From a virus: DNA of 64,000 bases. This document shows positions 3,140 to 63,601 of the stretch, piece by piece. The position numbers and the translations under genes were made by a program. A model generated the notes under the pieces. That model ran no database searches. It saw only the letters and a list, made by a program, of their open reading frames with translations, and was not told the DNA's origin. Numbering within the stretch: position 1 is the stretch's first letter; each line of letters starts with the position of its first letter. The DNA is taken from IMG/VR virus record IMGVR_UViG_3300020160_002696, positions 22,851 through 86,850 of that record; one strand, given 5' to 3'.

Positions 3140-3529
3140 TTATTCTAAACCATATTCTGATTTTATCTCATCAAATAATTCTGAGTAATCATCATCACTC
3201 ATATCTTTATCATAAGTACTTTTATACCAGCTAATCATTTCTCCAATAACAACATCTTGTGCTTCACCATTATTGTGGTCAATATACCAATCATATTCTG
3301 AATCATAATCTTCTTCCCAATCAGGATCTACCCATTCCATAATTTCAAGATCATATCTAGAAGCAACTTCATTATCAGAATATTCTTCTTTTATTCTTGT
3401 AATTGCCAAATCTAAGTCAAATTGACCTGTAGATGTTTCTTGTTTAGTATCATCTTTGTCATCAAATCCTAATACTGGGTTAATGTTTTCATCATCACTG
3501 ATGTCTTCAAATGTTTTTATGTATTTCAT
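3140..3529 (-). CDS. Acidic hypothetical protein with N-terminal leader motif
   Basis: Starts MKYIKTFED. Confidence 0.8.
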   Translation of the reverse strand: MKYIKTFEDISDDENINPVLGFDDKDDTKQETSTGQFDLDLAITRIKEEYSDNEVASRYDLEIMEWVDPDWEEDYDSEYDWYIDHNNGEAQDVVIGEMISWYKSTYDKDMSDDDYSELFDEIKSEYGLE

Positions 3530-3536
3530 AGTATTT

Positions 3537-4016
3537 TTATTTATGTTTTCCTTCTAATATCATTATATCAAACTCACTATCTTTCATAGCAAGTGCAAAT
3601 GTGTGTCCTAATTGTTCTACTTTATGTTGAACATCTTGTGCAACCTCCATAAACCCATAAGTCTTGGAAGTAGGTATTCCAAATGCTCTTCCATTTCTTT
3701 GTTGGTCAGCAGTCAATATATCATATGTTTCTCTAAATCTTATTATATAACCTTTGTAATAACCTTTTATATCTTTAATATTACCTGCTGCAGTTCTATC
3801 TTCATGTTCTTGATATAAATCATCAAAACTTTTATCAGATGTTCTAACTGCATATAAATCTCCACTCTCATCTTCTAAATTCCAACGTCTTTGTAAATGA
3901 TAGTTTATTGTATAAGTAAGATTATGGTCTCCAAACTCAGTTAGTAAAAATCTTAGTTTATCTTCATCTTCAAATATATCATTTGATAAACTCTCTGTAA
4001 ACTTTCTCATTCTCAT
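3537..4016 (-). CDS. Hypothetical protein with N-terminal leader motif
   Basis: Starts MRMRKFTES. Confidence 0.8.
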   Translation of the reverse strand: MRMRKFTESLSNDIFEDEDKLRFLLTEFGDHNLTYTINYHLQRRWNLEDESGDLYAVRTSDKSFDDLYQEHEDRTAAGNIKDIKGYYKGYIIRFRETYDILTADQQRNGRAFGIPTSKTYGFMEVAQDVQHKVEQLGHTFALAMKDSEFDIMILEGKHK

Positions 4017-4975
4017 TATTTCAATTTTATATGTATATTTAACCAGAATGATTGGGCTTTAACACTTATTAAAACTTTATCAGACCATTTTTTACTTAAT
4101 ATCCAGTTACTAAAGTTACCTTTAATATTAAATAATTCTCCTTCATCTAATTTACCATTATCCCATTTACCAATACCATAATAACCAAATGATAAAACTT
4201 TATCAACTAATGTTGGTTTTGACCTTTGTTCATGATAACCTGGTGTAAAATCTTTCATATCTGTTTTTATCTTACCTAATAAAAGAATATCTTGATATGA
4301 TAAATTAACTAACTCTTTTTTCAAAGAAGCTGCAGATTTTAAGTCTAATTGAACAATCCATTTAATTACAGATTGTGATAATTTGAATTGACCAATTGGT
4401 AATGATTCTTCATAAGAAATACCATACTCAAATTTACCATCACATTTAATACCAAAGTATAAATCAACTTCATTTTTTGCATAGTCAATCATCTCTACAT
4501 ATTTAGATAAAGATTTGAATCTACTAAATACTATCTTAACATCATCAGAAATCAATTTTGGATAGTGATAGAACAACAAAAACTCATCAGGTGACTTATC
4601 TAATGTTGGTTGTCCATTCTTCTGTCCTAAGGCAGTTAATGCTTTCAAAAAAGAATTAAATATACCTTTTCCTGCTAATGTAATTTCAGATTCTAAAAGG
4701 TCTTCAACTTCTGTAGAAGCAGATACTTTAGCTTCTGGATGTTCTTGTAAACCATTTTGTTGATAATCTTCAATTTGTTTCTTTATATCAGCTTGTTCTC
4801 TTGAATCTAATAGGTTAATAGCATTTGATAGTTTAATATCAGGTGTTATTTCACCTAAAAATCTATTTACTATATTTTTAATGTATTCATCATCATATAA
4901 TGATTCAACCCATTCTCCTATAGAGTTGAAGTCTTCTTTACTTTCTTTGATGAATTCTAAATATTTCTTTATCAT
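4016..4975 (-). CDS. Hypothetical protein with N-terminal leader motif
   Basis: Starts MIKKYLEFIKES; TAATATATA immediately upstream. Confidence 0.85.
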   Translation of the reverse strand: MIKKYLEFIKESKEDFNSIGEWVESLYDDEYIKNIVNRFLGEITPDIKLSNAINLLDSREQADIKKQIEDYQQNGLQEHPEAKVSASTEVEDLLESEITLAGKGIFNSFLKALTALGQKNGQPTLDKSPDEFLLFYHYPKLISDDVKIVFSRFKSLSKYVEMIDYAKNEVDLYFGIKCDGKFEYGISYEESLPIGQFKLSQSVIKWIVQLDLKSAASLKKELVNLSYQDILLLGKIKTDMKDFTPGYHEQRSKPTLVDKVLSFGYYGIGKWDNGKLDEGELFNIKGNFSNWILSKKWSDKVLISVKAQSFWLNIHIKLK

Positions 4976-5030
4976 AGTCTATATATTAAATTATATGATT
5001 ACTTTTTTACTTTGGTTGTGTACATGTATT

Positions 5031-5183
5031 TCAAACATTATTTATTAAATCTAATTGTTCTTGAGTTAATACTTCCATATTACAAGTAGTAATAAAAATA
5101 CTAAGATCTTGTGGATTATTAATTATTGAATTAAATTCATCTTCATTTAATCCTTGAATTTCTAAAAATTGATTTTCTTCCAT
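5031..5183 (-). CDS. Small acidic protein (50 aa), possible fibre chaperone
   Basis: Manual translation MEENQFLEIQGLNEDEF..., TAATG-coupled to the fibre operon. Confidence 0.55.
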   Translation of the reverse strand: MEENQFLEIQGLNEDEFNSIINNPQDLSIFITTCNMEVLTQEQLDLINNV

Positions 5184-9853: not shown

Positions 9854-9867
9854 TATTTATATTATTT

Positions 9868-13733: not shown

Positions 13734-14141
13734 TTACTGAGGATTTGTTTGTAACATCTTAACTATTTCCATAAAGGCCTTTTCTGTACCTTTAATAGTA
13801 TATTCATATAAACCATATGCATTTACTTCTGTAGGTGCTTGGTCATAGAATTTAACACCATTGAGAACTTCATCTATATCATTTCGGTATTTAAGATAAA
13901 AATCATATATATCAGCATCATTTATAAATCCTTCAACTTTAACATCTTCTGGATTCTTTTCAAATGATTCAACAAAGGAAGCAAACTCTCCACCACTTTT
14001 AGTAATAGTATTATCAATCATCTTTTTTACTTCTTCTTTAAGTTCAGTAAACTTATTTGAATCTAATGATTTAACACCTGGTGTCTCATCAATATTGGCA
14101 TCATCTGCCTCATTTACAAATTGTGTATATCTTTTTATCAT
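13734..14141 (-). CDS. Hypothetical protein with N-terminal leader motif
   Basis: Starts MIKRYTQFVNEA; TAATATATA 4 nt upstream. Confidence 0.8.
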   Translation of the reverse strand: MIKRYTQFVNEADDANIDETPGVKSLDSNKFTELKEEVKKMIDNTITKSGGEFASFVESFEKNPEDVKVEGFINDADIYDFYLKYRNDIDEVLNGVKFYDQAPTEVNAYGLYEYTIKGTEKAFMEIVKMLQTNPQ

Positions 14142-14159
14142 AATCTATATATTAACTTT

Positions 14160-23724: not shown

Positions 23725-23739
23725 TTTTATATATAAGTT

Positions 23740-25125
23740 ATGATAAAAAGATACTTACAATTTATTAAAGAACAACAATTGTCTTTATTCCCTATGGATG
23801 AAGTAATGAAACCTGTTGAAGAAATAAAAACATATAGACTTGAAGATGATAAGATTGAAGAACTATTTGTTGAAATGAGTGATGAGGGATATACAATTGA
23901 TATTGAAAGAGGTTTTGTAGAAACTGAATTTAGATATAGTGGTGGAAAGTATCACAATGATTATAAAGTATTTGGACAGAAATTAGTTAAAGGTGAGGTA
24001 ACTCCTGCATACTGGGTAAATATATATGATACAAAACCAACAAGTGATGATGTTACTGATGTTGTTTTAACTGCAATTGATTATTTTGAAGACCTTGGTT
24101 TTGAAGCTAAAGTATATGAAAATAAGAGTGAGGTAAATTTAGATGAATTATTAATACAAGGTGGGTTCTTTTTGAAAGATGAAAGTGGTGATATAACTAA
24201 AGATATACAAATAGATGATAATATCGGCTTATTTGTAATGGATAAGAAAGAAACAAAAATTGATGCTAAAGAACTTTGTGAGTATTATGAATGGTTGTCT
24301 GAAAAAGATAAAGATACTTTTATAGAAGGTGATGATATTTATATTGTTGTTGGAATGGAAGATTTGGCTGATATATTATTAGGTGATGAAAAAAGTTATA
24401 AAAGTCAATTAATTGATGGTATAGATGATGATTACTATTATAGTTCAGAATATTATCCAGATACAAATTCTTTACTTAGTCATGATTTGAATAAAGAAAA
24501 TGAAGTTCTATTAGTTAAAGCTTTAATTAAAGAATATGGTGGATTAGATGAACTTGTTAAAGAAGCAGATAATGATAAATTAGAAGGATTAACAGAAGAT
24601 GAAGTTATAGAATATCTAACTAAAGAAAGATATTACTATACATTAATTGAGTTATGTAAAAATTCTGATTTAGTACAAGATATTAAACAAACTTATGGTG
24701 ATTATGCAGTAAGTGCTCATCAAGATGCAAACTATCAAGAACTTGTTAATGAGTTTGATAATATTGTTGGTGATAGAAGTTATGGTGCAGAATTATCATA
24801 TAGTAAATATGATAAAGAAGTAGAAGTTAAAAAGACTTATACTAAACAAGATGGTACAAGAGAAACACATACTTATCCAGAAGTTCAAACATTTTATAAA
24901 ATAAAGTTTGATAATAAATGGCTTGAGAACTTTGATTATGACTTCTTACAAAATGAATCACTTTATGATATATTTAGAGAGTATTGTCAGGCTTGGTTAG
25001 GAACTTTTAAGTTTGAACCTCACTTTTCTGATTATGGTTCAGTTGATTTAAAAGAATTTAATGGTGATGTTACTTGGATGTTAAATAACAAACTTGGTAT
25101 AGAAAATAAAAGAAATCCTTCATAA
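23740..25125 (+). CDS. Acidic hypothetical protein with N-terminal leader motif
   Basis: Starts MIKRYLQFIKEQ; TTATATATA upstream. Confidence 0.85.
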   Translation: MIKRYLQFIKEQQLSLFPMDEVMKPVEEIKTYRLEDDKIEELFVEMSDEGYTIDIERGFVETEFRYSGGKYHNDYKVFGQKLVKGEVTPAYWVNIYDTKPTSDDVTDVVLTAIDYFEDLGFEAKVYENKSEVNLDELLIQGGFFLKDESGDITKDIQIDDNIGLFVMDKKETKIDAKELCEYYEWLSEKDKDTFIEGDDIYIVVGMEDLADILLGDEKSYKSQLIDGIDDDYYYSSEYYPDTNSLLSHDLNKENEVLLVKALIKEYGGLDELVKEADNDKLEGLTEDEVIEYLTKERYYYTLIELCKNSDLVQDIKQTYGDYAVSAHQDANYQELVNEFDNIVGDRSYGAELSYSKYDKEVEVKKTYTKQDGTRETHTYPEVQTFYKIKFDNKWLENFDYDFLQNESLYDIFREYCQAWLGTFKFEPHFSDYGSVDLKEFNGDVTWMLNNKLGIENKRNPS

Positions 25126-26171: not shown

Positions 26172-26619
26172 TTACATGAAAGGTTTTAATGCCTCTTCAT
26201 CAAGTTCTATTCCTAAGATAAACTTAAACTCACCACCTACTTTTTTAACATCTGATGATAAAGTACCATTATACATTATTTCTTTACCATTTTCTTTAAC
26301 TAAAATACTTGCTAATAATTTATATGTTCTCTTATCTGTTTCAGTTGAACCTTCATTATTATCTGCTTTTCTTATCCATTCATCATATTGGTCAAATTTA
26401 TCTTGTTTAAATCTAACTTCTTTATATACATCTAACTCTACCAAGTATTGAAAATTTTCATCTTTGGTCCAAGTTTTTAGTTTACGGTCATATTTAAGAT
26501 ATTTCTCAGTAAAGTTTGTTTGATAATCTTCTATTTCTCTTAGACATTGTATCTAATTCTTCTTTAGTAAGTCTTGTTAACTTTCTTGATTTATGTTGAT
26601 TAAAATTTTGTATCTTCAT
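26172..26619 (-). pseudogene. Frameshifted hypothetical gene (leader MKIQNFNQ)
   Basis: ATG at 26619 is TAATG-coupled to the upstream gene and stops after 37 aa; the +1 frame from about 26540 is open and continues into ORF 26172..26444. Confidence 0.55.
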
Positions 26620-26849
26620 TATTCTTTAGTTATTTTATAACCTAATTTTTTTATCATTTCAGTTACATCTAATATTAGATTTGTGGCTAAATCATGTGTC
26701 ATTACAAATCTACCATCATTATCATCTATAATAGATTTTATTTCACTTGTATAGTTCTTTCTAAAAGAAACATAGTCTTTATTAGAACTATCAAATTTAT
26801 TTAGTATTTCCTTGTTATCTATAACCTCATTAAATTTCTTTATCTTCAT
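26619..26849 (-). CDS. Small protein with N-terminal leader motif
   Basis: Starts MKIKKFNEV; TAATATATA upstream. Confidence 0.8.
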   Translation of the reverse strand: MKIKKFNEVIDNKEILNKFDSSNKDYVSFRKNYTSEIKSIIDDNDGRFVMTHDLATNLILDVTEMIKKLGYKITKE

Positions 26850-26866
26850 ATTATTATATATTAAAA

Positions 26867-29150: not shown

Positions 29151-29834
29151 ATGAAACACTTAAAAAAGTTTAATGAAAGTAAATCAGAAATGCCATTGGA
29201 AGACTACTTTGTAGAATTTGTAGATGAAGGGTTTACTATTGAAAGAGAGTTAAATCAATTCAAACTTAAATATACTGGAGAATATGATTTTAGTCAAACA
29301 CTTGAAATGTATAATGATGTAATCTCTAAATTACAAGCTTATGGTAGAGATATAACTAAAACAGACTTATCATATAGAAAATCTGTTACAAATATTCTTA
29401 TTGAAGTTAAGAATAATATTAAACCTAATGATGCTATTGAAATTACACTTAGAGGTGAAAAATTAAAACTAATACCACATGCTTATGCAGTATATGGTAG
29501 TCCACAACCTCAACAAAGTTATCATACTAATGATGCAGGTAGAACAGTAAAACTTGGTAAACCAAGACCACCATATGTTAATACTATAATATTATTCTGT
29601 AAAGATGAAAATAATAGAAACTATAATATAACTTGGGAAAATAGATATGGTAATGAACTTTCTAAAGAGGATATTAGAGCAAAAGTACAAAATACAAATA
29701 TTAATATTGATTTAGAAAATGCTTCTAAAGTAATAGAAACTATCAAAAAGAATGAAATTGAGGCAAGATATGGAACTGAAATAATGCTTGATGTATTTAC
29801 TGAAACAATTACTCCAGAATTACTTACTAGATAA
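29151..29834 (+). CDS. Hypothetical protein with N-terminal leader motif
   Basis: Starts MKHLKKFNES; TAATATATA at 29137-29145. Confidence 0.85.
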   Translation: MKHLKKFNESKSEMPLEDYFVEFVDEGFTIERELNQFKLKYTGEYDFSQTLEMYNDVISKLQAYGRDITKTDLSYRKSVTNILIEVKNNIKPNDAIEITLRGEKLKLIPHAYAVYGSPQPQQSYHTNDAGRTVKLGKPRPPYVNTIILFCKDENNRNYNITWENRYGNELSKEDIRAKVQNTNINIDLENASKVIETIKKNEIEARYGTEIMLDVFTETITPELLTR

Positions 29835-33854: not shown

Positions 33855-34361
33855 ATGAGATACTTAAAATTATTTGAAGATATAGTTCCTGCACATCAAA
33901 GTGGGTCCGAATATAGAAACAGAAATACTGATGAAACAACAGATGTTACTAAATTAGATAGTATACCACTTAGGTCACCAGTGTATCAAAAAGGTGAAAT
34001 ACTTATCTTTTCAGAGGGTAGAGATGTTGATTATGAATTTGCAGAAAGGTTATTAAAAAGGTTAGGTCTTAAATTGATAGGTGAACCTTATGATAGAGGA
34101 TTTTTAGTTAAATGTGAGCCTGGTAAGGAAGTAGAAAGTGCCAAAATGGCAATTGCAAAATATCCTGATTTTTTTGATAGTTATGAAAGAGAAGATATTA
34201 GAATGCCTTATATATCAGATAAAGTTGATGTTTTAGTTGGAGAAGTTGAAGGTATAGTAGATTTCTTTGAAAGTACTTTACAAAGAAATGTAAATTCTAC
34301 TAAATATAATAAGTATATTGATGATATAATAAATGAACTGGATAAGTTAAAAATAAATTAA
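33855..34361 (+). CDS. Hypothetical protein with N-terminal leader motif
   Basis: Starts MRYLKLFED; TAATATATA upstream. Confidence 0.85.
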   Translation: MRYLKLFEDIVPAHQSGSEYRNRNTDETTDVTKLDSIPLRSPVYQKGEILIFSEGRDVDYEFAERLLKRLGLKLIGEPYDRGFLVKCEPGKEVESAKMAIAKYPDFFDSYEREDIRMPYISDKVDVLVGEVEGIVDFFESTLQRNVNSTKYNKYIDDIINELDKLKIN

Positions 34362-34363: not shown

Positions 34364-34684
34364 ATGAAACATATAAAAATATTTGAAGAGTTTAGAGAGA
34401 AAGTTGTAACTTTCACTAATAAAAGAAATCCAAGGTTAGTAATAAAAGTTACTAAAACACCTGATGGTAGAATAACTAATATTGATAATCCAAATGGAAT
34501 AAGATTTTGTTTCTCTGTAGGACAACTATTTAACAGAACTGCTGAGGTTTGGGCAAGTAATAATAACTACTTAATGGATGGACAAGATATGACACCAGAA
34601 GAGAAAATAATGGGAATTAAAGTATCTGATATACCACCAGGACATGAACTAAGAATGTTATATCCTGGAAAGTTTAAAAAGTAA
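34364..34684 (+). CDS. Hypothetical protein with N-terminal leader motif
   Basis: Starts MKHIKIFEEF. Confidence 0.85.
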   Translation: MKHIKIFEEFREKVVTFTNKRNPRLVIKVTKTPDGRITNIDNPNGIRFCFSVGQLFNRTAEVWASNNNYLMDGQDMTPEEKIMGIKVSDIPPGHELRMLYPGKFKK

Positions 34685-34694: not shown

Positions 34695-35480
34695 ATGAAA
34701 TACTTAAAATTATATGAAGAGTTTGTTAGTAAAGAAACTAAAGTAAACTGGGGAGAAGCTGAACTTGAAATCAAAGAAATGTTTAGAATCTTTAAAGAGT
34801 TAAAAGAAATACCAAATGAATTGACTGTTGATGGTGAGAAATTTAATATAGATAAATCTATCTTTGATGTTGAAGAACCTCAAGAGTTTGAACAACAAGT
34901 TGATGATATAAATGGTAAGCACACAGACTCTTCAAAGATTGGACCAACTGCAGATGAAATTCTATCAATGAAAGAGTTGACGGTTAGTGGTAAAAAGGTA
35001 GATGCAAAACCTTATTACAATTTTATTAAATTTTGTAAGAAGGTATTTTGGAAAGGTCAGAAAGTTCAATTAGATAAAACAACAATTCAAAAGTTAGCAG
35101 ATGATTCACAATCAATAGGTAGAGGTGAATTTTCAAAATTCATAAAAGATTCTAGTGAGTATCAAAGATTATCAAAAGCATATGATAATACTATGACTTT
35201 CTTGAAAGAAAAAGGAGCAGAAGATAAATTTAATACAACTGGTTTATTTAGTAAGTACCCGGATATCAATAAAAAAGACTACAATGACGCAGTTCATTAC
35301 TTTATTTACTATGGCAAATCTTATTTATTCTTTGAAGAACAAATAAAGAAAGGTGGTAAAATGCCAATAACATCAGCAATTGAAATTTCAGGTAAATGGT
35401 ATATTGTTGGTGGTAATAGAAGAATGAGTTTTTATGTATTAAGTGGTATAGACCCAGTGATATGGCTAACTAAGATTTAA
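34695..35480 (+). CDS. Protein with N-terminal leader motif and possible ParB/Srx-like C-terminus
   Basis: Starts MKYLKLYEEF; C-terminal WYIVGGNRR resembles the ParB GxxR motif. Confidence 0.65.
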   Translation: MKYLKLYEEFVSKETKVNWGEAELEIKEMFRIFKELKEIPNELTVDGEKFNIDKSIFDVEEPQEFEQQVDDINGKHTDSSKIGPTADEILSMKELTVSGKKVDAKPYYNFIKFCKKVFWKGQKVQLDKTTIQKLADDSQSIGRGEFSKFIKDSSEYQRLSKAYDNTMTFLKEKGAEDKFNTTGLFSKYPDINKKDYNDAVHYFIYYGKSYLFFEEQIKKGGKMPITSAIEISGKWYIVGGNRRMSFYVLSGIDPVIWLTKI

Positions 35481-38931: not shown

Positions 38932-39555
38932 ATGAAAATTAAAAAATTTGGTATTTTTTTAGAAAGTTTAGCAAGACCTGATAGTAGTTTAAAAACACTA
39001 AAGAGAACTAAAGAACTTAATGGTTCTGACTTTTTAGAGATATTAAATGAAAATTGTAAAAATTTCTCTTTTGATAATACACAACTTTGGAGGTCAAAAA
39101 CAAAGAAATATAATTTAGAGTTATTTACACCTGCTCCAAGAAATGCAGATCCTCTCGCATTTAAAGATTTCTTTAATGAAATTGAACATAATACAGAAGA
39201 ATATCCAGTTGTTAGAAAAAACTCTTTAATTGGTGGAACTGATAAAGAAATTTGTAAGTTTTTAGTTGGTGGTGATATGTATTTAGTTATACCATTTGAT
39301 GATAGTGAAATAGTATTTTGTCCAATTATGGATATGTGGGCAATGTCAGATGATAGAAAAAACTTAACAGGTAAAAATATGTTGGTTAAAGGTAAACCAA
39401 TAAGTAAAGATGATTTTACAAAAGTTTCTTATACTAAAAACTTTAAATACTTAGATAAAGGTTGGAATGGTAAAGGTTGTGAGTTCTTTATATCAAGTCC
39501 TTGTTTATTAGTTCATGAAAGTAAAATAGATTGGTTAAAGAAAAACTTAAAATAG
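38932..39555 (+). CDS. Hypothetical protein with N-terminal leader motif
   Basis: Starts MKIKKFGIFLES; TTATATATA upstream. Confidence 0.8.
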   Translation: MKIKKFGIFLESLARPDSSLKTLKRTKELNGSDFLEILNENCKNFSFDNTQLWRSKTKKYNLELFTPAPRNADPLAFKDFFNEIEHNTEEYPVVRKNSLIGGTDKEICKFLVGGDMYLVIPFDDSEIVFCPIMDMWAMSDDRKNLTGKNMLVKGKPISKDDFTKVSYTKNFKYLDKGWNGKGCEFFISSPCLLVHESKIDWLKKNLK

Positions 39556-40296: not shown

Positions 40297-40308
40297 GATG
40301 GGTTTTGT
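40281..40308. terminator. Bidirectional terminator, same core as 21244-21269
   Basis: ACAAAACCCATC-ATAA-GATGGGTTTTGT. Confidence 0.85.
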
Positions 40309-40634
40309 TATATCTTTAATATTAAACTAATTACTTTATCAACCTCTGATATGGAATATATTCCTAAAGTATCAGTAATATTAAACTCTTCTTTTACTAT
40401 AGATAAATTTTTATCAATCAATGATATTGAAATAAAAGGTAGATTTTTTTCTTCTCTTAATCCTTCAAGAAAAAATTTTACATAGTTATGATTATAAGTA
40501 ATACCTATTAATTCACGATTCTTCTGTAATTCATTAACAATTTTATGTAAAATATCTACCTCTTCTTTTTCTAATTGATTTGGATTCCAACTCCCCATTG
40601 TATCAAACATTTCATTAAACTTCCTTAGTTTCAT
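40308..40634 (-). CDS. Hypothetical protein with N-terminal leader motif
   Basis: Starts MKLRKFNEM. Confidence 0.8.
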   Translation of the reverse strand: MKLRKFNEMFDTMGSWNPNQLEKEEVDILHKIVNELQKNRELIGITYNHNYVKFFLEGLREEKNLPFISISLIDKNLSIVKEEFNITDTLGIYSISEVDKVISLILKI

Positions 40635-40647: not shown

Positions 40648-42825
40648 TTATTTTATTGCAGATAATTCATACTTAGGTCTTTTACCTGAGTTTTTCATTA
40701 TCCAGTTTAATGTTTCTATTTTAGAATCTTTTAACCTTTTTCTACTAATTTTAATCCAAGTAAAAATATCATCCCAATCACCATCACTTATTTTCTCAAA
40801 TAAACCAGCTTCTTTGAAATATTCTAAACATTCAATTCTACCATATTCAGCAGCCCATTTAATTATTTGGTTTCCTTTACCATCTAATAAATCCTGCCAT
40901 AATTTTGTTTTCTTAATATACTCCATTAATAATAAAAATGGTTCATAATAAGATTTACCAACATTATCTACTTTTGACCAAGTTCCTTTGTAACAAGCTC
41001 TTAATGGTAATGATTGACCAAAGTTAGGATCCAATCCTGCAGATAAACAGAATTGTAATGGTTCAACTGCATTAACAACATTTTTAAATATTTCACCATT
41101 CATCTCAGCACCATAAGAAACTAATAATTTAATCATATCAATTCCTTTAGCTCTTAATAAAGGTCCTTCTTCTTTTTTCTTTAATGTAGTAAGTGCTCCT
41201 AATTTAAGAATTCCTTCTACTTTTTTAATATCATCTTCATCAACTGCATTTTCAAGACATTTACCATTGTCTTTATTAATATCAGCAGAATCTTCTTTAA
41301 CTAATTTAGTTATTTCTTCTAATGATAATCCTGGTTGAACAATTTTTCTATTGGCTTGTTTAGCTCTTTCTTTTCTATCAATTTCTTCTTGAGACATTGG
41401 TTTAAGTAATGACCAAAGATCAACATCAATATTGTGGTCATTTTCATAACCATTTAATATTTCTTTAAATCTTGAGGTATTAACATGTGTATCACGTCTA
41501 TTATGTGTAGCTCTAACACTTTGCCCTGGCTCAATAGTAGTACCAATTGTTGACCAGTCATCTGTAAGAGGTAAATTAAAGTCATAAATATAATATTGTT
41601 TATTATTATAATTACCAACATAACTATCCCAGTTACCTAAACTATCTTTAATACAGTGTGCAGTATGTCCATTTAACATAACATTTGCAGAGTATGATCT
41701 AACTTCAATAATTAAGATACCTTCTTTATTAATTTCTGGATCAAATCTATCTTCTGGTTTATATGGATAAACAAACTCAGCACCTGATGCACCAAGTTTT
41801 GCAACACACTCATCAACTTTTTTACAAAAATCTAAGTATCTTCTTCTTACAATTCTAATTCTTCTTTCTTCTGGAGATTCACCTTCAATAACTTCATCTT
41901 TACTCATTTCAATAGAAGTTAAATATTGTTTAGCTGCTTTTAAAAACTCTTCAATATTGTGGTATCTTGGAAGTGTACTCATAAAGTGATAAGTGTTATA
42001 TAATGGATTAGGAATATCACTAACTTGTCCATTAATCATTTTAAATTGGAATGTGTCTAATGTAATACCACCAAAGAAAGCTTCTACATCTTTATCTGCA
42101 AGTTTATCAAATCCTTCTGCAATCTCTGCAAACTTTTCAGCATTCATTTCTGATATAGTTGCATAACTGGCTTTTAATTCAGAACTAACACTTAACTTAT
42201 CTGCAATTCTTTTAACTTTTCTATATTGTGCTAATCTATCTAAACCATCAGATAATTGTTCCATATTATTTGTAATATTAGGATCAATAAAATTTAAGTC
42301 AAATGGTTTTTTAACCAAACTCGGTTTATCTGCAGTACCTTTATTTACAGTAAGATTTTGTAAAATATCTTTATTCTTTAATAATTTACCATAAAGTGAT
42401 GATAAATCTTCAAGTGTACCTCCTTCAAAGAAATAGAAATAAACAAAGGCTGATAGCCAACCCATATTATCTTTATCTAATTGATAAGTTTTCTCATTTC
42501 CATTAGACATTACAACTTTAGTTTTTAATTCTCTTAAAGCCTTTAATTGTGGGTCTCCTTCAACTTGTCTTAATTGTTCAGGAGTTAAACTGATTTCTCT
42601 TATTTTTAACTTAATTTGATTTCTTTCTTCTTCATTGAAATCATTCAATGTAACAGATTTTCTTTCACCATGTTTAAGTTGTTGACCTAATTCACCATTT
42701 AAAAGCCCTAATTGTTGAGCAGCAGTTTGAACAAGGTATCTATCTTTTAGATATTTTTTTGCCTTATCTAAGTTTTCATTGATTGAATCTAATCCTAAAA
42801 ATTGGTTATATTTAGCTAATTTCAT
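40648..42825 (-). CDS. Large protein with N-terminal leader and C-terminal ankyrin-like repeats
   Basis: Starts MKLAKYNQFL; IKLLVSYGA, LSAGLDPN and WAAEYGRIECLEYF ankyrin-like helices. Confidence 0.7.
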   Translation of the reverse strand: MKLAKYNQFLGLDSINENLDKAKKYLKDRYLVQTAAQQLGLLNGELGQQLKHGERKSVTLNDFNEEERNQIKLKIREISLTPEQLRQVEGDPQLKALRELKTKVVMSNGNEKTYQLDKDNMGWLSAFVYFYFFEGGTLEDLSSLYGKLLKNKDILQNLTVNKGTADKPSLVKKPFDLNFIDPNITNNMEQLSDGLDRLAQYRKVKRIADKLSVSSELKASYATISEMNAEKFAEIAEGFDKLADKDVEAFFGGITLDTFQFKMINGQVSDIPNPLYNTYHFMSTLPRYHNIEEFLKAAKQYLTSIEMSKDEVIEGESPEERRIRIVRRRYLDFCKKVDECVAKLGASGAEFVYPYKPEDRFDPEINKEGILIIEVRSYSANVMLNGHTAHCIKDSLGNWDSYVGNYNNKQYYIYDFNLPLTDDWSTIGTTIEPGQSVRATHNRRDTHVNTSRFKEILNGYENDHNIDVDLWSLLKPMSQEEIDRKERAKQANRKIVQPGLSLEEITKLVKEDSADINKDNGKCLENAVDEDDIKKVEGILKLGALTTLKKKEEGPLLRAKGIDMIKLLVSYGAEMNGEIFKNVVNAVEPLQFCLSAGLDPNFGQSLPLRACYKGTWSKVDNVGKSYYEPFLLLMEYIKKTKLWQDLLDGKGNQIIKWAAEYGRIECLEYFKEAGLFEKISDGDWDDIFTWIKISRKRLKDSKIETLNWIMKNSGKRPKYELSAIK

Positions 42826-42838: not shown

Positions 42839-44473
42839 TTATTTTCTTCTGTTGTGATATTTTGTTGCTTCAAGTATTCTTTCTATTTCAATACCATATA
42901 TTCTTTTGCCATCTTCTGATAAAGATTCAGTTAGTTTATCTAACTTTTTCTTAATAGCAGCTCTTTCTTCTTCTGTTTTTGCATCAGATAATTTATCAAG
43001 TAATGTATCAACATCATCTTCTTCCTCTTCTTCTGTAGTTTCAACATCTTTTGCTTTACTAATTCCTAATCCTGATAAGTAATCATCAAAATCACCTTCA
43101 TCTTCATCAGAATAAGTAGGTTCTTCTTCTGAACCACCAAATTGTTGTTCCATTTCCCATTTAGATAATTCATCTTCATATTCTTTCTCTGCAGTAACAA
43201 TATCATTAATTATACCCTCAATTTTTTTCTTAGCAGAAGATGAATTAAATTTTTCTTCATTAAGTACAAACTCTAAGTTTTCTTCCTCAACAAGGTCAAA
43301 TGTAGAGAATATGTCTTTTGTTATCTCTAGAAATTCACCATCTGTAAAATCACCACCTCTATCTTTATCTAAAGCTAATTTACCATATACTCTTAATCTC
43401 ATTTGTGAATATTTATCTGAATCTTTACAAGCATTAATAAAATCTCTAAACATTGCTTGCATTGAAACACCATATCTAAAATCTTGTGATTCATCTTCAA
43501 ATGAAGATGTATTTTGTGCAATAAGTTTTGCCATTTCTTCATCATCCTTAATAGAACCAGATTTAATCAATGACCAAATACCTTTAACTGCTTCATGTAT
43601 TAACATTGGGAAGTCAATACCAACTGCTTTAATAGTAATTTTATCAAAATCTTCTTGGTCTCCAGTCATTACTGTACCATCTTCATCTTGATAACTATTT
43701 TCTTCTTCTTGTGCTTCTTCTTCATTATCTTCTTCATCATCCTTTTCCCATTTAACCTGACATGATCCAGCCATAAATTCTTGTGCATCTCTCATCATTT
43801 TGGATTTTATCTCTATAGGTGATGCCCAGTCCAATTTGTTAGCCATATCTGTTGTTTGTAACCAGATGTTATAAATAGTTTCCCAATTATTTCCAAATAT
43901 TTCACTTAACCCATCTTCAACAATACTCTTATCTTTTATTATATTCTTTGTTGCTTTAGCTTCACCTTGATTAATTACATTAAGTATTTTCTTTTTATCA
44001 ACTGCTTTTCTTAATTCAGGATCATTTATTTCTTCTTGTGATGGAAAAGATGGAATATCTTTCATTTCAGGTATCTCACTACTAACTTGTTTTCCAGGTC
44101 TAAGCATTTTAATATCTAAAACTATTGGTTTTTCAGATGCATCTAATATCTCACTATACTGATCTAATATAATTTTCTTAGCAAGTTGTTCAAGCTTAAT
44201 ATATTTATCTTCTAGTTGTTGAGGAACAGGTCCTCTACCTTGAAACATTGCCATAATTTGTTGAGGTGGTATTCCTTGAAACATAAAATCCATACCTTGA
44301 CTAACTAATCTACCTAATTGTGGTCCTATTTGTTGCTCAGATGCTCTATTGTCAATTTCTACACCAAGATTTTTTCTAGCTTGTCTATCAGCATCAGTAG
44401 TTAAATTATCTGGAATACCAGTATTTCCTTTTAAGTCTATTTCTTCTTTTAAAAATTGTGAAAAACTCTTCAT
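42839..44473 (-). CDS. Acidic hypothetical protein with N-terminal leader motif
   Basis: Starts MKSFSQFLKEE; contains FPMLIHEAVKG. Confidence 0.8.
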   Translation of the reverse strand: MKSFSQFLKEEIDLKGNTGIPDNLTTDADRQARKNLGVEIDNRASEQQIGPQLGRLVSQGMDFMFQGIPPQQIMAMFQGRGPVPQQLEDKYIKLEQLAKKIILDQYSEILDASEKPIVLDIKMLRPGKQVSSEIPEMKDIPSFPSQEEINDPELRKAVDKKKILNVINQGEAKATKNIIKDKSIVEDGLSEIFGNNWETIYNIWLQTTDMANKLDWASPIEIKSKMMRDAQEFMAGSCQVKWEKDDEEDNEEEAQEEENSYQDEDGTVMTGDQEDFDKITIKAVGIDFPMLIHEAVKGIWSLIKSGSIKDDEEMAKLIAQNTSSFEDESQDFRYGVSMQAMFRDFINACKDSDKYSQMRLRVYGKLALDKDRGGDFTDGEFLEITKDIFSTFDLVEEENLEFVLNEEKFNSSSAKKKIEGIINDIVTAEKEYEDELSKWEMEQQFGGSEEEPTYSDEDEGDFDDYLSGLGISKAKDVETTEEEEEDDVDTLLDKLSDAKTEEERAAIKKKLDKLTESLSEDGKRIYGIEIERILEATKYHNRRK

Positions 44474-44474: not shown

Positions 44475-44741
44475 TTATTTAATTAAATTTTTAAGTTCTA
44501 TACCTTCTTCTTTAGTAACTCTAACTAATCTGTTAAAAACATCTTCTAAAGTTGCATCTTGTCCTGGTTGTTTTAGTTTTGCCAAAGGAGCATCTTCCTC
44601 ACTTGGTCTTTGTCCTGGTACTACACCTGGTCTTGAAGGTCTTGTTCTAGTTGGAGTATCTGTATCTGGTTTAACAACAGGTCTAGCTGGTGCAGTCATT
44701 GTAGATTCAACAAACTTTTCATATTTTCTGATATATTTCAT
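44475..44741 (-). CDS. Pro-rich small protein with N-terminal leader motif
   Basis: Starts MKYIRKYEKFVES. Confidence 0.8.
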   Translation of the reverse strand: MKYIRKYEKFVESTMTAPARPVVKPDTDTPTRTRPSRPGVVPGQRPSEEDAPLAKLKQPGQDATLEDVFNRLVRVTKEEGIELKNLIK

Positions 44742-44824
44742 AATTATGATTTTTATATTTTATATATATATTAAAAAGTTATATATCAAAAAATTATATA
44801 TAACAGAAAAAATAAAGATATTAT

Positions 44825-45359: not shown

Positions 45360-45384
45360 AAAACCACTCAAATTGAGTGGTTTT
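45360..45384. terminator. Bidirectional terminator
   Basis: AAAACCACTC-AAATT-GAGTGGTTTT. Confidence 0.85.
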
Positions 45385-45565
45385 CTTCTTTTAATATATT
45401 TCTAATCTTTCTTTTTCTTTTTTCATTCTTGGTTTCAATTATAAGAGTAGAATATCTACTTGTTATTGACTTACTTAGATTAGGAGTTCCTGACCAAGTT
45501 GCAGCCATTGTTTGTATTGTATATGGTAACCAAACAACTCCTATATTATTTGTTAAATTCTTCAC
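45368..45565 (-). CDS. Mini-protein resembling the gp23 capsid C-terminal segment plus KRKRKIRNIL
   Basis: GVVWLPY....P...ITSRYS pattern; GTG start overlapping the upstream ORF. Confidence 0.6.
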   Translation of the reverse strand: MKNLTNNIGVVWLPYTIQTMAATWSGTPNLSKSITSRYSTLIIETKNEKRKRKIRNILKEENHSI

Positions 45566-45701
45566 TATTAAGTATTTTCAATATTTTAATTTTTCTCCAG
45601 ACATTTCTATTTGACTTCCACAATTTCTTTACATAATTTGCAAAATCATCTTCTCTTCTGTGTTTATCACCATCTTTTCCCCAACCTCTTGCAAATGACA
45701 T
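45546..45701 (-). CDS. 51-aa basic protein with RKIKILKIL motif
   Basis: Manual translation MSFARGWGKDGDKHRREDDFANYVKKLWKSNRNVWRKIKILKILNSEEFNK. Confidence 0.6.
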   Translation of the reverse strand: MSFARGWGKDGDKHRREDDFANYVKKLWKSNRNVWRKIKILKILNSEEFNK

Positions 45702-45721: not shown

Positions 45722-46042
45722 TTATTTGTTCTCAGTATATAAATATTTTCTACCTTCTTCATTATAGTTTTGAATATTTGTAATCACAGTATCCAATTTA
45801 TCAATACTATCATCAACATTCTTTTTAATTATCTGTAATGCTGCAATTGAATCATCTATTTGATCATTACTTTTATTTGATAAATTTTTATAGTTACTTA
45901 ACTCTGTTTCTAAGGAATCTGTAATTTTACTTTTCTCTTCTAATTGAGATGTAAACTCTTTTAGTTCTTTTAATATCTCATCAACTCTTTCAGTTGCTAT
46001 ATCTTTTTGTTCTTCTGCTTCAAAAAATCTTCTTATTTTCAT
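45722..46042 (-). CDS. Coiled-coil protein with N-terminal leader motif
   Basis: Starts MKIRRFFEA. Confidence 0.8.
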   Translation of the reverse strand: MKIRRFFEAEEQKDIATERVDEILKELKEFTSQLEEKSKITDSLETELSNYKNLSNKSNDQIDDSIAALQIIKKNVDDSIDKLDTVITNIQNYNEEGRKYLYTENK

Positions 46043-46059: not shown

Positions 46060-46075
46060 TTAATATATATATTAA
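46060..46075. promoter_or_regulatory. Palindromic putative late promoter serving divergent genes
   Basis: TTAATATATATATTAA perfect palindrome with TAATATATA on both strands. Confidence 0.6.
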
Positions 46076-54909: not shown

Positions 54910-54926
54910 TACTTAATATATAGTTT

Positions 54927-55760
54927 ATGAGAATATTAAACTGGGAATTATTCCTTGAAGAATTAGTTGGAGATACTGAAATATCAAACTATCAGACTTA
55001 TGCAGATGGTATGGAAAAGTCAATGGATGATAAACTATTCTTTGTTAATAATATTGATTTTGATGTTATTGTAGATTTTGGATGTGCTAATGGTATATTT
55101 CTTTCTAAAGTTCAAACAATGAAACCTAATGTTAAGATAATAGGTTATGACTTAGATGATGTTATGTTATCTAAAGCAAGAGTTATTTTAGGTGAAGAAG
55201 CTTTACTTACAAGTTCTTGGGATGAAGTGGTTAATGAATTAAGTAACTATGAAAATCCTTTACTTAATTTAAGCTCAGTTATACATGAAGTTTATTCCTA
55301 CTCACACTCATCTGTTATTAAAAAGTTCTGGGAAAAACAAGTATTTGGTGGAAACTTCAAATGGATTACTATTAGAGATATGATACCTTCTTCTGATATT
55401 CATAAAAATGAATTAGAAAATTTTAAACAAGATGTTAAAAAAGTAAGAAAAAGAGCTAATAACTCCTTTCTAAATGATTTTGAAAAAAGATGGGGTTCAA
55501 TTGATGATAATTATAGAACTTTTTGTCACTTTTTGTTAAAATATAGATATATTGATAACTGGGAAAGAGAAGTAAAAGAAAACTATCTACCAGTATCTTT
55601 AGAAACGGTTAAGACAAAAATACCTTCAAGTTATAGTATTGAGTATGAACAAGACTTTATAGTTCCTTTTATTAAAGATAAAGTTGGTAAAGATTTTGGT
55701 GTTAAAATTACACATTCTACTCATGTTAAAATGGTGTTAAAAAATAATAATTTTAAATGA
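54927..55760 (+). CDS. Class I SAM-dependent methyltransferase with N-terminal leader motif
   Basis: VDFGCANG, IIGYD, LSSVIHEVYSY, IRD; starts MRILNWELFLEE; TAATATATA upstream. Confidence 0.85.
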   Translation: MRILNWELFLEELVGDTEISNYQTYADGMEKSMDDKLFFVNNIDFDVIVDFGCANGIFLSKVQTMKPNVKIIGYDLDDVMLSKARVILGEEALLTSSWDEVVNELSNYENPLLNLSSVIHEVYSYSHSSVIKKFWEKQVFGGNFKWITIRDMIPSSDIHKNELENFKQDVKKVRKRANNSFLNDFEKRWGSIDDNYRTFCHFLLKYRYIDNWEREVKENYLPVSLETVKTKIPSSYSIEYEQDFIVPFIKDKVGKDFGVKITHSTHVKMVLKNNNFK

Positions 55761-56002
55761 AAAAGTTTAGTGAGAGTACAGGTCATAGAGAAAATGGTGA
55801 ATGGATAAATGAAACACCACAAGCAAAATTGAGAAATCAATTAGGTCCATTTTGGACTTTAGTGAGTATATTATCAGAAGAAAGATTAGATAAATTATTA
55901 AATCATCCTGATGGATTAGAAATGATAAAAAAGTGTTTAGAACAATGTAAAGATAGTCAACAAAGAATACTTGACTTAATAAAAGAAACAGAAAATAAAT
56001 AA
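55757..56002 (+). CDS. Small protein with leader motif
   Basis: Starts MKKFSES; ATGA overlap with the upstream gene. Confidence 0.75.
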   Translation: MKKFSESTGHRENGEWINETPQAKLRNQLGPFWTLVSILSEERLDKLLNHPDGLEMIKKCLEQCKDSQQRILDLIKETENK

Positions 56003-56010
56003 TTAAAACA

Positions 56011-56244
56011 ATGAGTAAAATTAGAAAATTTAATGAAAACCTTACAGAAGGTTTAAGTGAGTCTGAGGCAGAACAATTATGGAGTGAAGTTGAAAACCAA
56101 GGATTTGGATATTGGGTTCAACATTATGGATATGATGGAACAGAAGATCCAAAATTAGTAGAACTATGTGAAAATGCTAAATTTGCAATGAATGAACTTG
56201 ATACACACATGCAAGCTATTTTTGATAAATATGATATTGGATAA
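56011..56244 (+). CDS. Small protein with leader motif
   Basis: Starts MSKIRKFNEN. Confidence 0.8.
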   Translation: MSKIRKFNENLTEGLSESEAEQLWSEVENQGFGYWVQHYGYDGTEDPKLVELCENAKFAMNELDTHMQAIFDKYDIG

Positions 56245-56249
56245 AAACT

Positions 56250-56278
56250 AAAAACCACTCAAATGAGTGGTTTTTTTT
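56250..56278. terminator. Bidirectional terminator, same stem as 45360
   Basis: AAAAACCACTC-AAAT-GAGTGGTTTTT. Confidence 0.85.
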
Positions 56279-56531
56279 ATATTGTTTTGAAATCTTTTAT
56301 CTCAACACACATATCTACATTTTCATATGAATATCCATCTTCAACATCACTACCATTTTCAACTAAGAACTTTTGTAACTCTTCTCTTGTTGGCATTTCT
56401 GGATGTTCAATAAAATAAATATAGTGATCTGAACTTTCACTAGTTGTTGTTAAAACAAATTGTTTCATTGGTCTGTGAGGATTAGGATAACTTGGATTCC
56501 CAATTTCCTCATTAAATTTTTTTATTTTCAT
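56277..56531 (-). CDS. Small protein with leader motif
   Basis: Starts MKIKKFNEE. Confidence 0.8.
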   Translation of the reverse strand: MKIKKFNEEIGNPSYPNPHRPMKQFVLTTTSESSDHYIYFIEHPEMPTREELQKFLVENGSDVEDGYSYENVDMCVEIKDFKTI

Positions 56532-56761
56532 TATTTATTATTTTTTAAGAATTTTTTGTAAAGACCCATTTCATCTTTTCTGACCTCAAAATCAGAATCT
56601 ACACCAGTAATAATTTCTTGTTCTTCTGGTTTATATGAATCTTCCATTGCACATTTTGCTTCTTCTAAATTATCAAATGTTCCTAAATATTCTTTAGTTT
56701 CTTTATCTACTAAATAGATTTTAGTATTATTGTTCTCATTAAATTTTTTTAAGTATTTCAT
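56531..56761 (-). CDS. Small protein with leader motif
   Basis: Starts MKYLKKFNEN. Confidence 0.8.
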   Translation of the reverse strand: MKYLKKFNENNNTKIYLVDKETKEYLGTFDNLEEAKCAMEDSYKPEEQEIITGVDSDFEVRKDEMGLYKKFLKNNK

Positions 56762-56774
56762 AATACTATATATA

Positions 56775-56803
56775 AAAAAATCCTCTTAAAAAAGAGGATT
56801 TTT
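56775..56803 (-). terminator. Intrinsic terminator downstream of nrdA
   Basis: AAAAAATCCTCTT..AAGAGGATTTTTT. Confidence 0.8.
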
Positions 56804-62629: not shown

Positions 62630-62726
62630 AGACTTATATATTAAAATATTTTTTCATTTTTATTAAAAAAGCAGGAAAAGCAGAAAAAAACATTAATATA
62701 TATACTAAAATAAAATAGCTAAAACC

Positions 62727-63233
62727 ATGAAACACATAAAAAAATTTGAAAACTTTGATTTTGGAAGATTCAATGATGAAGACGAAGTAAAAGATCCAAA
62801 CTTTGAAGAACAAGACTTTACTGACTCTGACTCAGAAGAGGAAGAATTTGCTAATGAAGTAGAAGATGAGGATGAAGAAAGATATGAAGATGAAGAACAA
62901 GAAGAACAAGAAGAAGATGATCACAGAATCAGAAGATGGGGTGATGAAGAAGTAGTGGAAAAGAAAAAAGTTAATCCAGGTTTTCAAGCTTATTTAGATA
63001 AACAAAAAGGTAAAAAGGCAGATAAAGGCAATGATAAAAAAGGTGGTAAAAAAGGTAAACCAGATTTCTTAGATATTGATAAAGATGGTGATAAAAAAGA
63101 AACTATGAAGAAAGCAACCAAAGATGCTAAAGATGATAAAAAAGATGATAAAGGTGGTAAAAAAGGTTTAACAGCTGGTCAAAAGAAATTACCAGAAGCA
63201 ATGCAAAAAGCTATTTTGAAAAAACAAAAATAA
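62727..63233 (+). CDS. Bipartite acidic/basic protein with leader motif (putative internal head protein)
   Basis: MKHIKKFENF; D/E-rich N half, K-rich C half with PDFLDIDKDGDKKE. Confidence 0.8.
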   Translation: MKHIKKFENFDFGRFNDEDEVKDPNFEEQDFTDSDSEEEEFANEVEDEDEERYEDEEQEEQEEDDHRIRRWGDEEVVEKKKVNPGFQAYLDKQKGKKADKGNDKKGGKKGKPDFLDIDKDGDKKETMKKATKDAKDDKKDDKGGKKGLTAGQKKLPEAMQKAILKKQK

Positions 63234-63235
63234 GA

Positions 63236-63419
63236 ATGAAACATTTAGTAAAGTTTAATGAAGATATTAAAGTAGATTCTAGAAAAATTAAAGATATTCT
63301 TAGTAGTGATATAATTAAAAAAATTAAAAAATTACGTTGTATGGGGGTCTAATGTTGAATGTGTTGGATATGAGGATGCAAAAAAAGATATTATAGAACT
63401 TATAAAAAAAGAAAAATAA
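63236..63419 (+). pseudogene. Small leader-motif gene with apparent +1 frameshift in an A-run
   Basis: MKHLVKFNED... stops after 38 aa; removing one A near 63325-63331 extends it to a stop just before the next gene. Confidence 0.5.
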
Positions 63420-63424
63420 TAATT

Positions 63425-63601
63425 ATGAAGATTAAGAAATTTAATGAAGAATTCTTTGGTGGTGCAGAAGGTCAGGTAAATATTAATATTGATGGTGATG
63501 GACTAGTTAAAGAAGCAGTTATTAATGAAATTAAAAAATTATTAAAAAATATGGGTGGTGATATAAATCTATCAGTTGATGGTGAAAAAATTAACATATA
63601 A
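63425..63601 (+). CDS. 58-aa protein with leader motif
   Basis: Manual translation MKIKKFNEEFFGGAEGQVNINIDGDG... Confidence 0.7.
   Translation: MKIKKFNEEFFGGAEGQVNINIDGDGLVKEAVINEIKKLLKNMGGDINLSVDGEKINI

Follow-up and report, generated by a model that had tools for sequence, protein, structure and literature searches.

Why should two dozen otherwise unrelated proteins of one virus begin with almost the same short peptide? The question is raised by a 64,000-nucleotide (nt) stretch of viral DNA (the window), bases 22851-86850 of the 86,850-bp contig in IMG/VR record IMGVR_UViG_3300020160_002696, in which 24 genes between window positions 3140 and 63601 encode such a leader. The leader is N-terminal, is selected as a peptide, is portable over unrelated proteins, is better conserved than the linker that follows it, and is tied to what is best read as a late promoter. 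On comparative grounds, the best explanation, to which we give about an even chance, would be a T4-type N-terminal capsid-targeting and cleavage propeptide.

The contig is a fragment of an AT-rich Mahaphage-type phage of ~0.6 Mb. Its GC content is 25-30%, and the size follows from a CheckV completeness of 15%. DNA matches among GenBank phages were limited to LR745206.1 (634,780 bp) and LR756502.1 (642,428 bp), both uncultured. The capsid protein of LR745206.1 clusters with those of other >460 kb genomes of the Al-Shayeb 2020 set; next nearest are the Tenacibaculum phages PTm1/PTm5, Lak phages, PAU, MaF61, pT24 and MA9V. In the available text of that study, every genome of its set >634 kb is assigned to the Mahaphage clade, and the hosts are predicted to be Bacteroidetes (PMC7162821). 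Of the 104 open reading frames (ORFs) called on the contig, 61 have a reciprocal best hit among the 963 ORFs called in LR745206.1, with gene order largely kept, and this complete genome was therefore used as a stand-in for the parts missing from the contig.

All 24 starts listed in a preliminary description of the window, made from the sequence alone, proved to be ATG ORFs with the peptides quoted. Sixteen genes have a short form, M-K-[YH]-[LI]-[KR]-x-[FY]-(N)-E, and eight a long form, M-I-K-[KR]-Y-x-x-F-[ILV]-x-E and variants; the starts at 55757 (MKKFSE) and 42825 (MKLAKYNQFLG) are weak members. The leader is far more frequent than expected by chance: the pattern of the preliminary description matched 8 of the 104 contig ORFs (0.06 expected), and K/R-x(0-1)-F/Y-x(0-1)-E from residues 2-6 matched 19 of 104 (1.56 expected from the internal rate). 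A combined regular expression matched 111 of 963 N-termini in LR745206.1 (16.8 expected); among shadow ORFs it matched 3 of 866, and among pseudo-starts at internal Met 54 of 3170. Of these 111 carriers, 48 have L and 16 have I at position 4, 53 have F and 20 have Y at position 7, and 45 have Glu at position 8; in the short leader, Glu directly follows Phe in about 40% of cases, and in long leaders, Y5 and F8 occupy the aromatic positions. The same expression matched 9 of 277 ORFs in T4 (5.0 expected), four of them tag-like (IPI, IPII, IPIII and the hypothetical gp61.1). PTm1, an AT-rich jumbo phage (29.7% GC) with a Bacteroidota host and a related head module, served as a control and was not enriched (5 of 325 ORFs, 6.6 expected). 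Along with the shadow-ORF and internal-Met controls, this excludes composition and a generic N-terminal bias. AT-rich start regions, which the preliminary description had named as one explanation that would undo its claim, were ruled out as the cause by the PTm1 and shadow-ORF counts.

The carriers, with the upstream box discussed below where a gene has its own, are:

3140..3529, minus strand: 129-amino-acid (aa) carrier with the short leader MKYIKTFE; no Pfam or PHROG match; two genes downstream of the box at 4980-4988.
3537..4016, minus strand: 159-aa carrier with the short leader MRMRKFTE; start verified.
4016..4975, minus strand: 319-aa carrier with the long leader MIKKYLEFIKE; highly conserved, its fold without a match (from homologues and an AF2 model).
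4980..4988, minus strand: TAATATATA box, 4 nt before the ATG at 4975.
13734..14141, minus strand: 135-aa carrier with the long leader MIKRYTQFVNE, flanked by two giant structural-type genes; its LR745206.1 orthologue starts MIKKYLQFIKE.
14146..14154, minus strand: TAATATATA box, 4 nt before the ATG at 14141.
23740..25125, plus strand: 461-aa carrier with the long leader MIKRYLQFIKE; box 23727-23735; no Pfam, PHROG or Atlas match.
26619..26849, minus strand: 76-aa carrier, MKIKKFNE; box 26855-26863.
29151..29834, plus strand: 227-aa carrier, MKHLKKFNE; box 29137-29145; weak PHROG head-tail adaptor match (E 1.8e-4).
33855..34361, plus strand: 168-aa carrier, MRYLKLFE; box 33821-33829, 25 nt upstream.
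34364..34684, plus strand: 106-aa carrier, MKHIKIFEE; start verified.
34695..35480, plus strand: 261-aa carrier, MKYLKLYEE; start verified.
38932..39555, plus strand: 207-aa carrier, MKIKKFGIFLE; box 38919-38927.
40308..40634, minus strand: 108-aa carrier, MKLRKFNE; start verified.
40648..42825, minus strand: 725-aa protein with the leader-like start MKLAKYNQFLG (Gly for Glu); ankyrin-like by language-model features only.
42839..44473, minus strand: 544-aa carrier, MKSFSQFLKE; its orthologue in LR745206.1 starts MKNFKDFMNE.
44475..44741, minus strand: 88-aa carrier, MKYIRKYEKFVE; box 44765-44773.
45722..46042, minus strand: 106-aa carrier, MKIRRFFE; box 46066-46074.
54927..55760, plus strand: 277-aa carrier, MRILNWELFLEE; weak S-adenosylmethionine-methyltransferase similarity below the Pfam cut-off; box 54914-54922.
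55757..56002, plus strand: 81-aa weak carrier, MKKFSE; start verified.
56011..56244, plus strand: 77-aa carrier, MSKIRKFNE; start verified.
56277..56531, minus strand: 84-aa carrier, MKIKKFNE; start verified.
56531..56761, minus strand: 76-aa carrier, MKYLKKFNE; box 56767-56775.
62727..63233, plus strand: 168-aa carrier, MKHIKKFEN; leader, variable acidic linker and conserved basic C-terminal part, predicted largely disordered; box 62694-62702.
63236..63352, plus strand: 38-aa carrier, MKHLVKFNE; start verified.
63425..63601, plus strand: 58-aa carrier, MKIKKFNE; best LR745206.1 match starts with the long-type MIKKWNQFNE.

In carriers, a conserved tag precedes a linker of low conservation. Over 11 orthologous pairs from the contig and LR745206.1, identity was 58% for the leader (residues 1-11) and 37% for the linker (residues 12-40), with 51% over the remainder, and in LR745206.1 the linker is acidic (21% Asp+Glu in residues 11-30 versus 14% in non-carriers). 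For the 168-aa protein at 62727, 538 homologues were found, and 114 of the 120 listed bear the leader; the other six look mis-started or truncated. The 319-aa protein has 668 homologues, and all 120 listed bear a leader, nearly always MIK[RK]Y[LI][ED]FI[KN]E, with one short-type leader in its place. An AF2 model of this protein has a mean pLDDT of 80, with residues 1-14 and 78-100 below 50, and residues 1-14 lie outside the modelled fold.

Such a pattern might be left behind if all carriers belonged to one huge paralogue family that diverged fast, with the leader, devoid of a targeting function, as its last conserved part. The frequent tandem runs of carriers (55757-56761, 62727-63601) and the small size and predicted disorder of many of them are in keeping with this. 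However, no BLASTP match at E<1e-3 was found among the 24 carriers once the first 15 residues were removed, and the 111 carriers of LR745206.1 split into 104 BLAST components. The preliminary description, which gave carrier sizes of 58-725 aa, was right that the bodies are unrelated; the range is really 38-725 aa (the ORF at 63236, plus strand, has 38 aa), and over this whole range no similarity is detectable. Because the tag in LR745206.1 is also found on unrelated established families (RNA ligase, 2H phosphoesterase-exonuclease, NFACT-R) and is better conserved than the residues next to it, a single paralogue family is highly improbable.

The constraint acts on the peptide, as synonymous codon use in the leaders is that of the whole genome (Lys AAA 73% versus 74-76%; Glu GAA 77% versus 72-80%; Phe TTT 75% versus 71-74%). 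The exchanges among leaders (K/R, Y/H, L/I, F/Y) are conservative at the protein level. An RNA-level signal was ruled out by this codon-usage test.

A T[AT]ATATATA box precedes 12 of the carriers, and the other 12 lie downstream in a box-headed unit. The link between leader and box that had been noticed from the sequence thus extends to all 24 carriers, compared with 29 of 54 non-carriers of at least 50 aa (Fisher p 1.2e-5). In LR745206.1 the same box precedes the genes for portal, protease-scaffold and capsid protein by 22-35 nt, and it is therefore best read as a late promoter, with the timing suggested by the genes that it precedes. It is not specific to carriers, being present before fibre genes, giant structural-type genes and recA as well. 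Among the 12 box-bearing carriers, the gap between box and ATG is 23-25 nt in four and 4-5 nt in eight (4980-4988, 14146-14154, 23727-23735, 26855-26863, 29137-29145, 38919-38927, 54914-54922 and 56767-56775). In LR745206.1 the most common gap is 4 nt; boxes at 4-5 nt precede 27 carriers and 48 non-carriers, and 19-25 nt is the second favoured gap.

A box so close to the ATG suggests that many late mRNAs would themselves be leaderless or nearly so, and the peptide could then be a translation feature, an optimal coding start for such mRNAs without a sorting role. The 4-5 nt gaps of the window carriers are what this would predict. Nevertheless, codon choice in the leader is genome-wide while K/R, Y/H, L/I and F/Y exchange freely, non-carriers with a box at the same distance have ordinary starts, operon-internal carriers without their own box keep the peptide, and the capsid gene, presumably the one with the highest expression need, has no leader. 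A role confined to translation therefore has very little probability.

If the leader instead acts as a capsid address, its counterpart would be the capsid-targeting sequence (CTS) of T4. In the available text of one account, the first 10 residues of IPIII make up the T4 tag, in which residues 4 and 7 serve targeting and residues 8 and 10 processing; the protease gp21 recognises L/I-X-E, and the tag carries foreign proteins into heads (PMC9026906). As far as the portions available go, both the tag and foreign-protein loading are textbook knowledge (PMC3012670, PMC9026906). The peptide cited in the preliminary description, MKTYQEFIAE, was confirmed from the T4 record, and the long leader keeps its aromatic-x-x-F-[ILV]-x-E spacing. 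Like the gp21-removed CTS of IPI, IPII and IPIII, the leader is an N-terminal tag of ~10 residues on unrelated proteins and ends in Glu. Hydrophobic or aromatic residues appear to fill the targeting positions (residues 4 and 7 of the short leader, residues 5 and 8 of the long form), and a putative gp21-type protease, a gp23-type capsid protein and a scaffold with [LI]-x-E sites are found in the same clade. The differences are equally plain: 24 genes in 64 kb and ~100 per genome bear the leader, as opposed to three known proteins (plus one look-alike) of 277 in T4; a second, shorter form exists, MK[YH]LKxF(N)E, in which the spacing often does not suit cleavage; most of the cargo is acidic; and the predicted scaffold is fused to the protease and made of tag-like repeats.

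Two further comparisons bear on this likeness. The T4 head proteins gp22 (MLKEQLIAEA) and gp24 (MAKINELLRES) have CTS-like starts that end in [LI]-x-E, which parallels the likeness between leader and scaffold repeat described below, but they are structural head proteins of one phage, whereas the leader is portable and shared by dozens of accessory proteins. In the giant phages phiKZ, 201phi2-1 and SPN3US, many head-internal proteins are processed after Glu by a diverged gp21 homologue (in 201phi2-1, 19 of 89 virion proteins are processed), and the propeptides of phiKZ, 201phi2-1 and SPN3US are long and variable, with the motif S/A-X-E; no common short N-terminal address is described for them in the available part of the source (PMC9026906). 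The present system differs from these in its T4 gp23-type capsid protein and its I/L/V/F-x-E pattern with a hydrophobic P3.

The head genes of LR745206.1 follow the T4 order, with a portal, a 707-aa protease-scaffold and a gp23-type capsid protein (E 6.8e-26). The first ~200 residues of the 707-aa protein (198546-200669) match Peptidase_S77 at an E of 1.1e-4, which does not reach the Pfam cut-off. An alignment with T4 gp21 and the homologue in PTm1, which passes that cut-off and is annotated 'prohead core scaffolding protein and protease', shows that the protein keeps NRNxRxY, GExxHP and SSRGxG, and H85 and S140 (T4 numbering), which we take to be the catalytic pair of gp21, are invariant. The rest of the protein is scaffold, with eleven 14-residue YSEY[LI]AENLDKNI repeats, then an acidic tail, and is also rich in further [LIV]-x-E sites. 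The fusion occurs in LR756502, LR756501 and LR756504 too, and with other repeats in PTm1. YSEY[LI]AE is present in 11-14 copies in these three Mahaphage records, twice in LR756500 and not in PTm1; the scaffold repeat is thus kept in four of the five Mahaphage records examined.

Potential cleavage sites of the clade have a common form. The capsid proteins of the five Mahaphages and PTm1 share ...WMSEYAEFHS[IM]NE/N... near residue 44 (the slash marks the bond in question). This predicted site, ...EFHSINE/N, resembles that of T4 gp23, which we take to be ...SFLTE/AEIGG, with cleavage positions assigned by analogy. The 707-aa protein starts with MKPVLIIE/N, which resembles the LLIE of gp21, a site that fits the cleavage logo given in the available part of its source (PMC9026906). 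From the protease residues, the capsid site and the MKPVLIIE start, the clade very probably retains the T4 specificity for hydrophobic-x-Glu. No gp24-type vertex protein with a tag-like propeptide was recognised around 209-232 kb of LR745206.1. A gp23-type capsid gene above the cut-off was detected in one of five larger tag-bearing IMG/VR contigs, a count that says little because all five are fragments.

A partial relative of the capsid protein lies in the window itself. The 151-aa ORF at 2643-3098 (minus strand), directly downstream of the three-gene carrier operon 3140-4975, is 36% identical to residues 5-109 of the gp23-type capsid protein of LR745206.1, and the match covers the capsid propeptide with its ...ELHATNE site.

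The pattern aromatic-x-x-aromatic-[ILVM]-x-E fits the T4 tag (YQEFIAE), the long leaders (YLEFIKE, YTQFVNE) and the scaffold repeat (YSEYIAE) alike. In LR745206.1 it occurs at 25 N-termini, 11 times in the scaffold and 52 times elsewhere, over 47 proteins, at a background of ~0.0003 per position. This likeness is the strongest in-silico argument that the leader acts with the prohead core; the leader looks like one unit of the scaffold and appears to end in the bond that the scaffold's own protease cuts. Docking, cleavage, packaging and ejection of the carriers are inferred steps, and can be pictured as follows. Late proteins made from TAATATATA-box promoters would bear an amphipathic start of 8-12 residues, whose conserved hydrophobic or aromatic positions would dock onto the scaffolding core of the assembling prohead, that is, onto the YSEY[LI]AE repeats in the C-terminal part of the protease-scaffold fusion. 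The gp21-type serine protease domain of the fusion would then cut the leader after its Glu; this would hold at least for the long form, whose F-[ILV]-x-E ending fits the processing spacing ([IL] at P3, Glu at P1). The cargo, once cut, would be free inside the head and would leave with the DNA at infection.

An amphipathic start could serve another purpose. N-terminal amphipathic helices serve membrane binding in some bacterial cytoskeletal proteins, and the order of basic and then hydrophobic residues in K-[YH]-[LI]-K-K-F, with hydrophobics at positions 3, 4 and 7, would suit a short membrane-binding helix that brings small acidic proteins to the inner membrane. Such a helix would make only about two turns with three hydrophobic residues, and the most conserved residue besides Phe is the acidic Glu. 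A hydrophobic stretch in the first 40 residues is found in only 4 of 111 LR745206.1 carriers, and a membrane role would leave both the likeness to the scaffold repeat and the F-[ILV]-x-E ending unexplained; we regard it as improbable. A Sec, Tat or lipoprotein signal peptide was rejected as well, given that an 11-residue Kyte-Doolittle mean of at least 1.6 in the first 40 residues was reached by only 1 of 24 contig carriers and those 4 of LR745206.1.

The leader is widespread in uncultured phages of this kind. A strict 27-nt back-translation of MK[YH]hK[KR]FNE found at least 119 stretches in IMG/VR; of the loci among the matches listed, 118 of 119 have a GC content of 23-35% and one of 42%, and the leader expression matches 312 of the 1442 ORFs of such loci. 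The pattern M-K-x-h-[KR]-x-[FY]-x-E occurs 33 times in LR745206.1, 30 times in LR756502, 10 times in LR756500 (as the variant MKYIKEYEE), four times on this contig, and once each in LR756504, T4 and PTm1. It was not found in LR756501, Lak-A1, MaF61, pT24, MA9V-2 or reversed-pattern controls. LR756501, with no short leader, has 13 long strict leaders and looser forms near its capsid gene; Lak-A1 has no strict leader.

Several observations weigh against a capsid-targeting propeptide. The head module (Peptidase_S77 protease, gp23-type capsid protein) was not found on the 86,850-bp contig, and the head machinery was therefore deduced from LR745206.1, with its 61 of 104 shared genes. The start at 42825 has Gly at the expected Glu position, and short leaders end in F-N-E, with Phe at P3, or, in many cases, in x-F-E-[SN], where P3 is Thr, Lys or Leu and not a fixed hydrophobic residue, and where Thr or Lys does not fit the hydrophobic-x-Glu pattern; the x-F-E leaders may target uncut, be cut elsewhere or do something else. 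The leader has expanded in particular lineages, and this expansion goes with the scaffold repeat only in part: LR756504 has 11 repeats but only one short and two long strict leaders, a lack of strict coupling also apparent in LR756500, which has a short-leader variant and a degenerate repeat. The cultured relatives PTm1, pT24, MaF61 and MA9V-2 have zero or one strict match each. Carriers in LR745206.1 are more acidic than other proteins (median isoelectric point 4.96 versus 5.52), unlike the internal proteins of T4, which we take to be basic. T4 gp61.1 (54 aa; AF158101 18966-19130), encoded beside the primase gene, has the tag-like start MKTFKEFIKE and is not, to our knowledge, a known head protein; a tag-like start alone thus does not prove packaging. 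Three enzyme-like carriers of LR745206.1, described below, could equally act in the cytoplasm, and the scale, ~10% of LR745206.1 genes, would exceed any known case.

A further alternative is that the leader is a peptide tag for sorting or docking at a destination other than the capsid. The target might be a compartment or replication factory built by the phage, a chaperone or AAA+ machine of its own, or a different part of the virion, and the likeness to T4 would have arisen by convergence of short amphipathic helices. A tag that is portable, conserved and selected as a peptide would suit any address, short leaders often lack the cleavage spacing, and some of its LR745206.1 carriers are ordinary cytoplasmic enzymes (RNA ligase, 2H phosphoesterase-exonuclease, NFACT-R). 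Twelve other small contig ORFs have, close to their C-termini, a different candidate tag, R-x-x-K-[IL]-x-x-[IL], which suggests that the phage may use more than one address. However, no compartment or receptor was identified, the long leader matches both the scaffold repeat of the clade and the predicted capsid cleavage site, and the carriers are presumably late genes, on the promoter of the head genes. A destination outside the capsid is unlikely on balance, less so than the other alternatives. The portable capsid-targeting and cleavage tag proposed in the preliminary description thus gains from the T4 spacing, the protease, the scaffold motif, the capsid site and the shared promoter, and loses where many short leaders depart from hydrophobic-x-Glu.

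The C-terminal motif itself, in the longer form R-x-x-K-[IL]-x-x-[IL]-[LG], lies mostly within ~10 residues of the C-terminus of its 12 small, non-carrier ORFs. These include 1230-1544, 31843-32238, 32856-33179, 45368-45508 and 45546-45701, and some lie upstream of the window on the contig. Several end in ...ILG or ...LGI right before the next ATG (e.g. TTAGGATA-ATG), which suggests that part of the motif may be an RNA-level coupling signal and not a peptide.

What the carriers would do if packaged can be judged from few of them. Pfam gave no match above its cut-off for 20 window carriers, and PHROG searches with 17 window carriers and three large non-carriers returned only weak or unnamed matches. 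The 725-aa protein scores 0.98 to viral ankyrin clusters of the Atlas, with no Pfam match, and is a lead only. For the 319-aa model, Foldseek found no PDB match at E<=0.001, and the best VIA-align wide score, a Z of 6.9 for ~75 residues in the final sub-domain, is no higher than what the tool itself states as noise; the AF2 model of the 168-aa carrier at 62727 is poor (pLDDT 60, mostly disordered). The word 'effector', used in the preliminary description for the packaged payload, thus goes beyond the evidence for most carriers, which have no recognisable domain. Carriers with identifiable domains come from LR745206.1: a T4 Rnl1-type RNA ligase (470485-471747; E 8e-21), whose catalytic domain begins at residue 77, a fusion of a 2H phosphoesterase, with weak likeness to Acb1, and an RNase T-type exonuclease (448257-449573), and a protein with an NFACT-R domain encoded directly downstream of the capsid gene. 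All three would also make sense as pre-packed counter-defence factors.

A bolder proposal, which we consider possible but doubtful, is that the clade loads ~100 proteins per genome into the prohead by a T4-style tag, so that the virion delivers a counter-defence or takeover proteome. Its further elements are no firmer: the tag may, speculatively, have been derived from the scaffold repeat or mimic it; RNA-repair and cyclic-nucleotide-degrading enzymes, ankyrin-like proteins and small acidic disordered proteins might tentatively be counted among the cargo; and any newly captured gene could perhaps, though this too seems rather less than probable, become cargo by the graft of 10 codons. No cultured, proteomics-backed carrier of the leader was found among the capsid-protein relatives. 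A search of main texts found no paper linking capsid targeting with huge phages, and among the papers listed the phrase 'capsid targeting sequence' appeared only in those on SPN3US; supplements might list N-terminal motifs. In the available text of a jumbo-phage overview, the terms 'leader', 'propeptide' and 'internal protein' do not occur (PMC7824862). The expansion to ~100 proteins in megaphages, the short form and the scaffold of tag-like repeats were not found in the literature searched.

If the capsid reading is correct, sequence alone would reveal which proteins uncultured half-megabase phages package and inject, the three-protein system of T4 would be seen to scale to ~100 cargo species, and hundreds of dark-matter proteins would be singled out as factors of the first minute of infection. 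The scaffold of tag-like repeats suggests an origin for such tags and their binding partner, and the leader is a compact tag that could be tested as a means to load large capsids with foreign proteins. Should the leader not serve capsid loading, a conserved address peptide on a tenth of the genes of a phage would still point to an unknown sorting system.

Genes of several other classes lack the leader, in agreement with the preliminary description. This applies to the replication and fibre genes tested (ribonucleotide reductase, DnaB, RecA, PhoH, N6-methylase and collagen fibres) and to those with a host-type promoter: TAnnTTTG, which we take to be the Bacteroidota housekeeping -7 element, precedes 13 non-carriers and no carrier. 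The leaderless genes behind TAnnTTTG include 21271-22548, 25142-25519, 26867-27505, 33172-33762 and 38423-38881, and the class fits a Bacteroidota host and early genes. Two paralogues at 6544-8298 and 8372-9853 (minus strand), which start with MSYS..., contain collagen triple-helix repeats (Pfam E 4.6e-18 and 1.8e-5) and are probably fibres.

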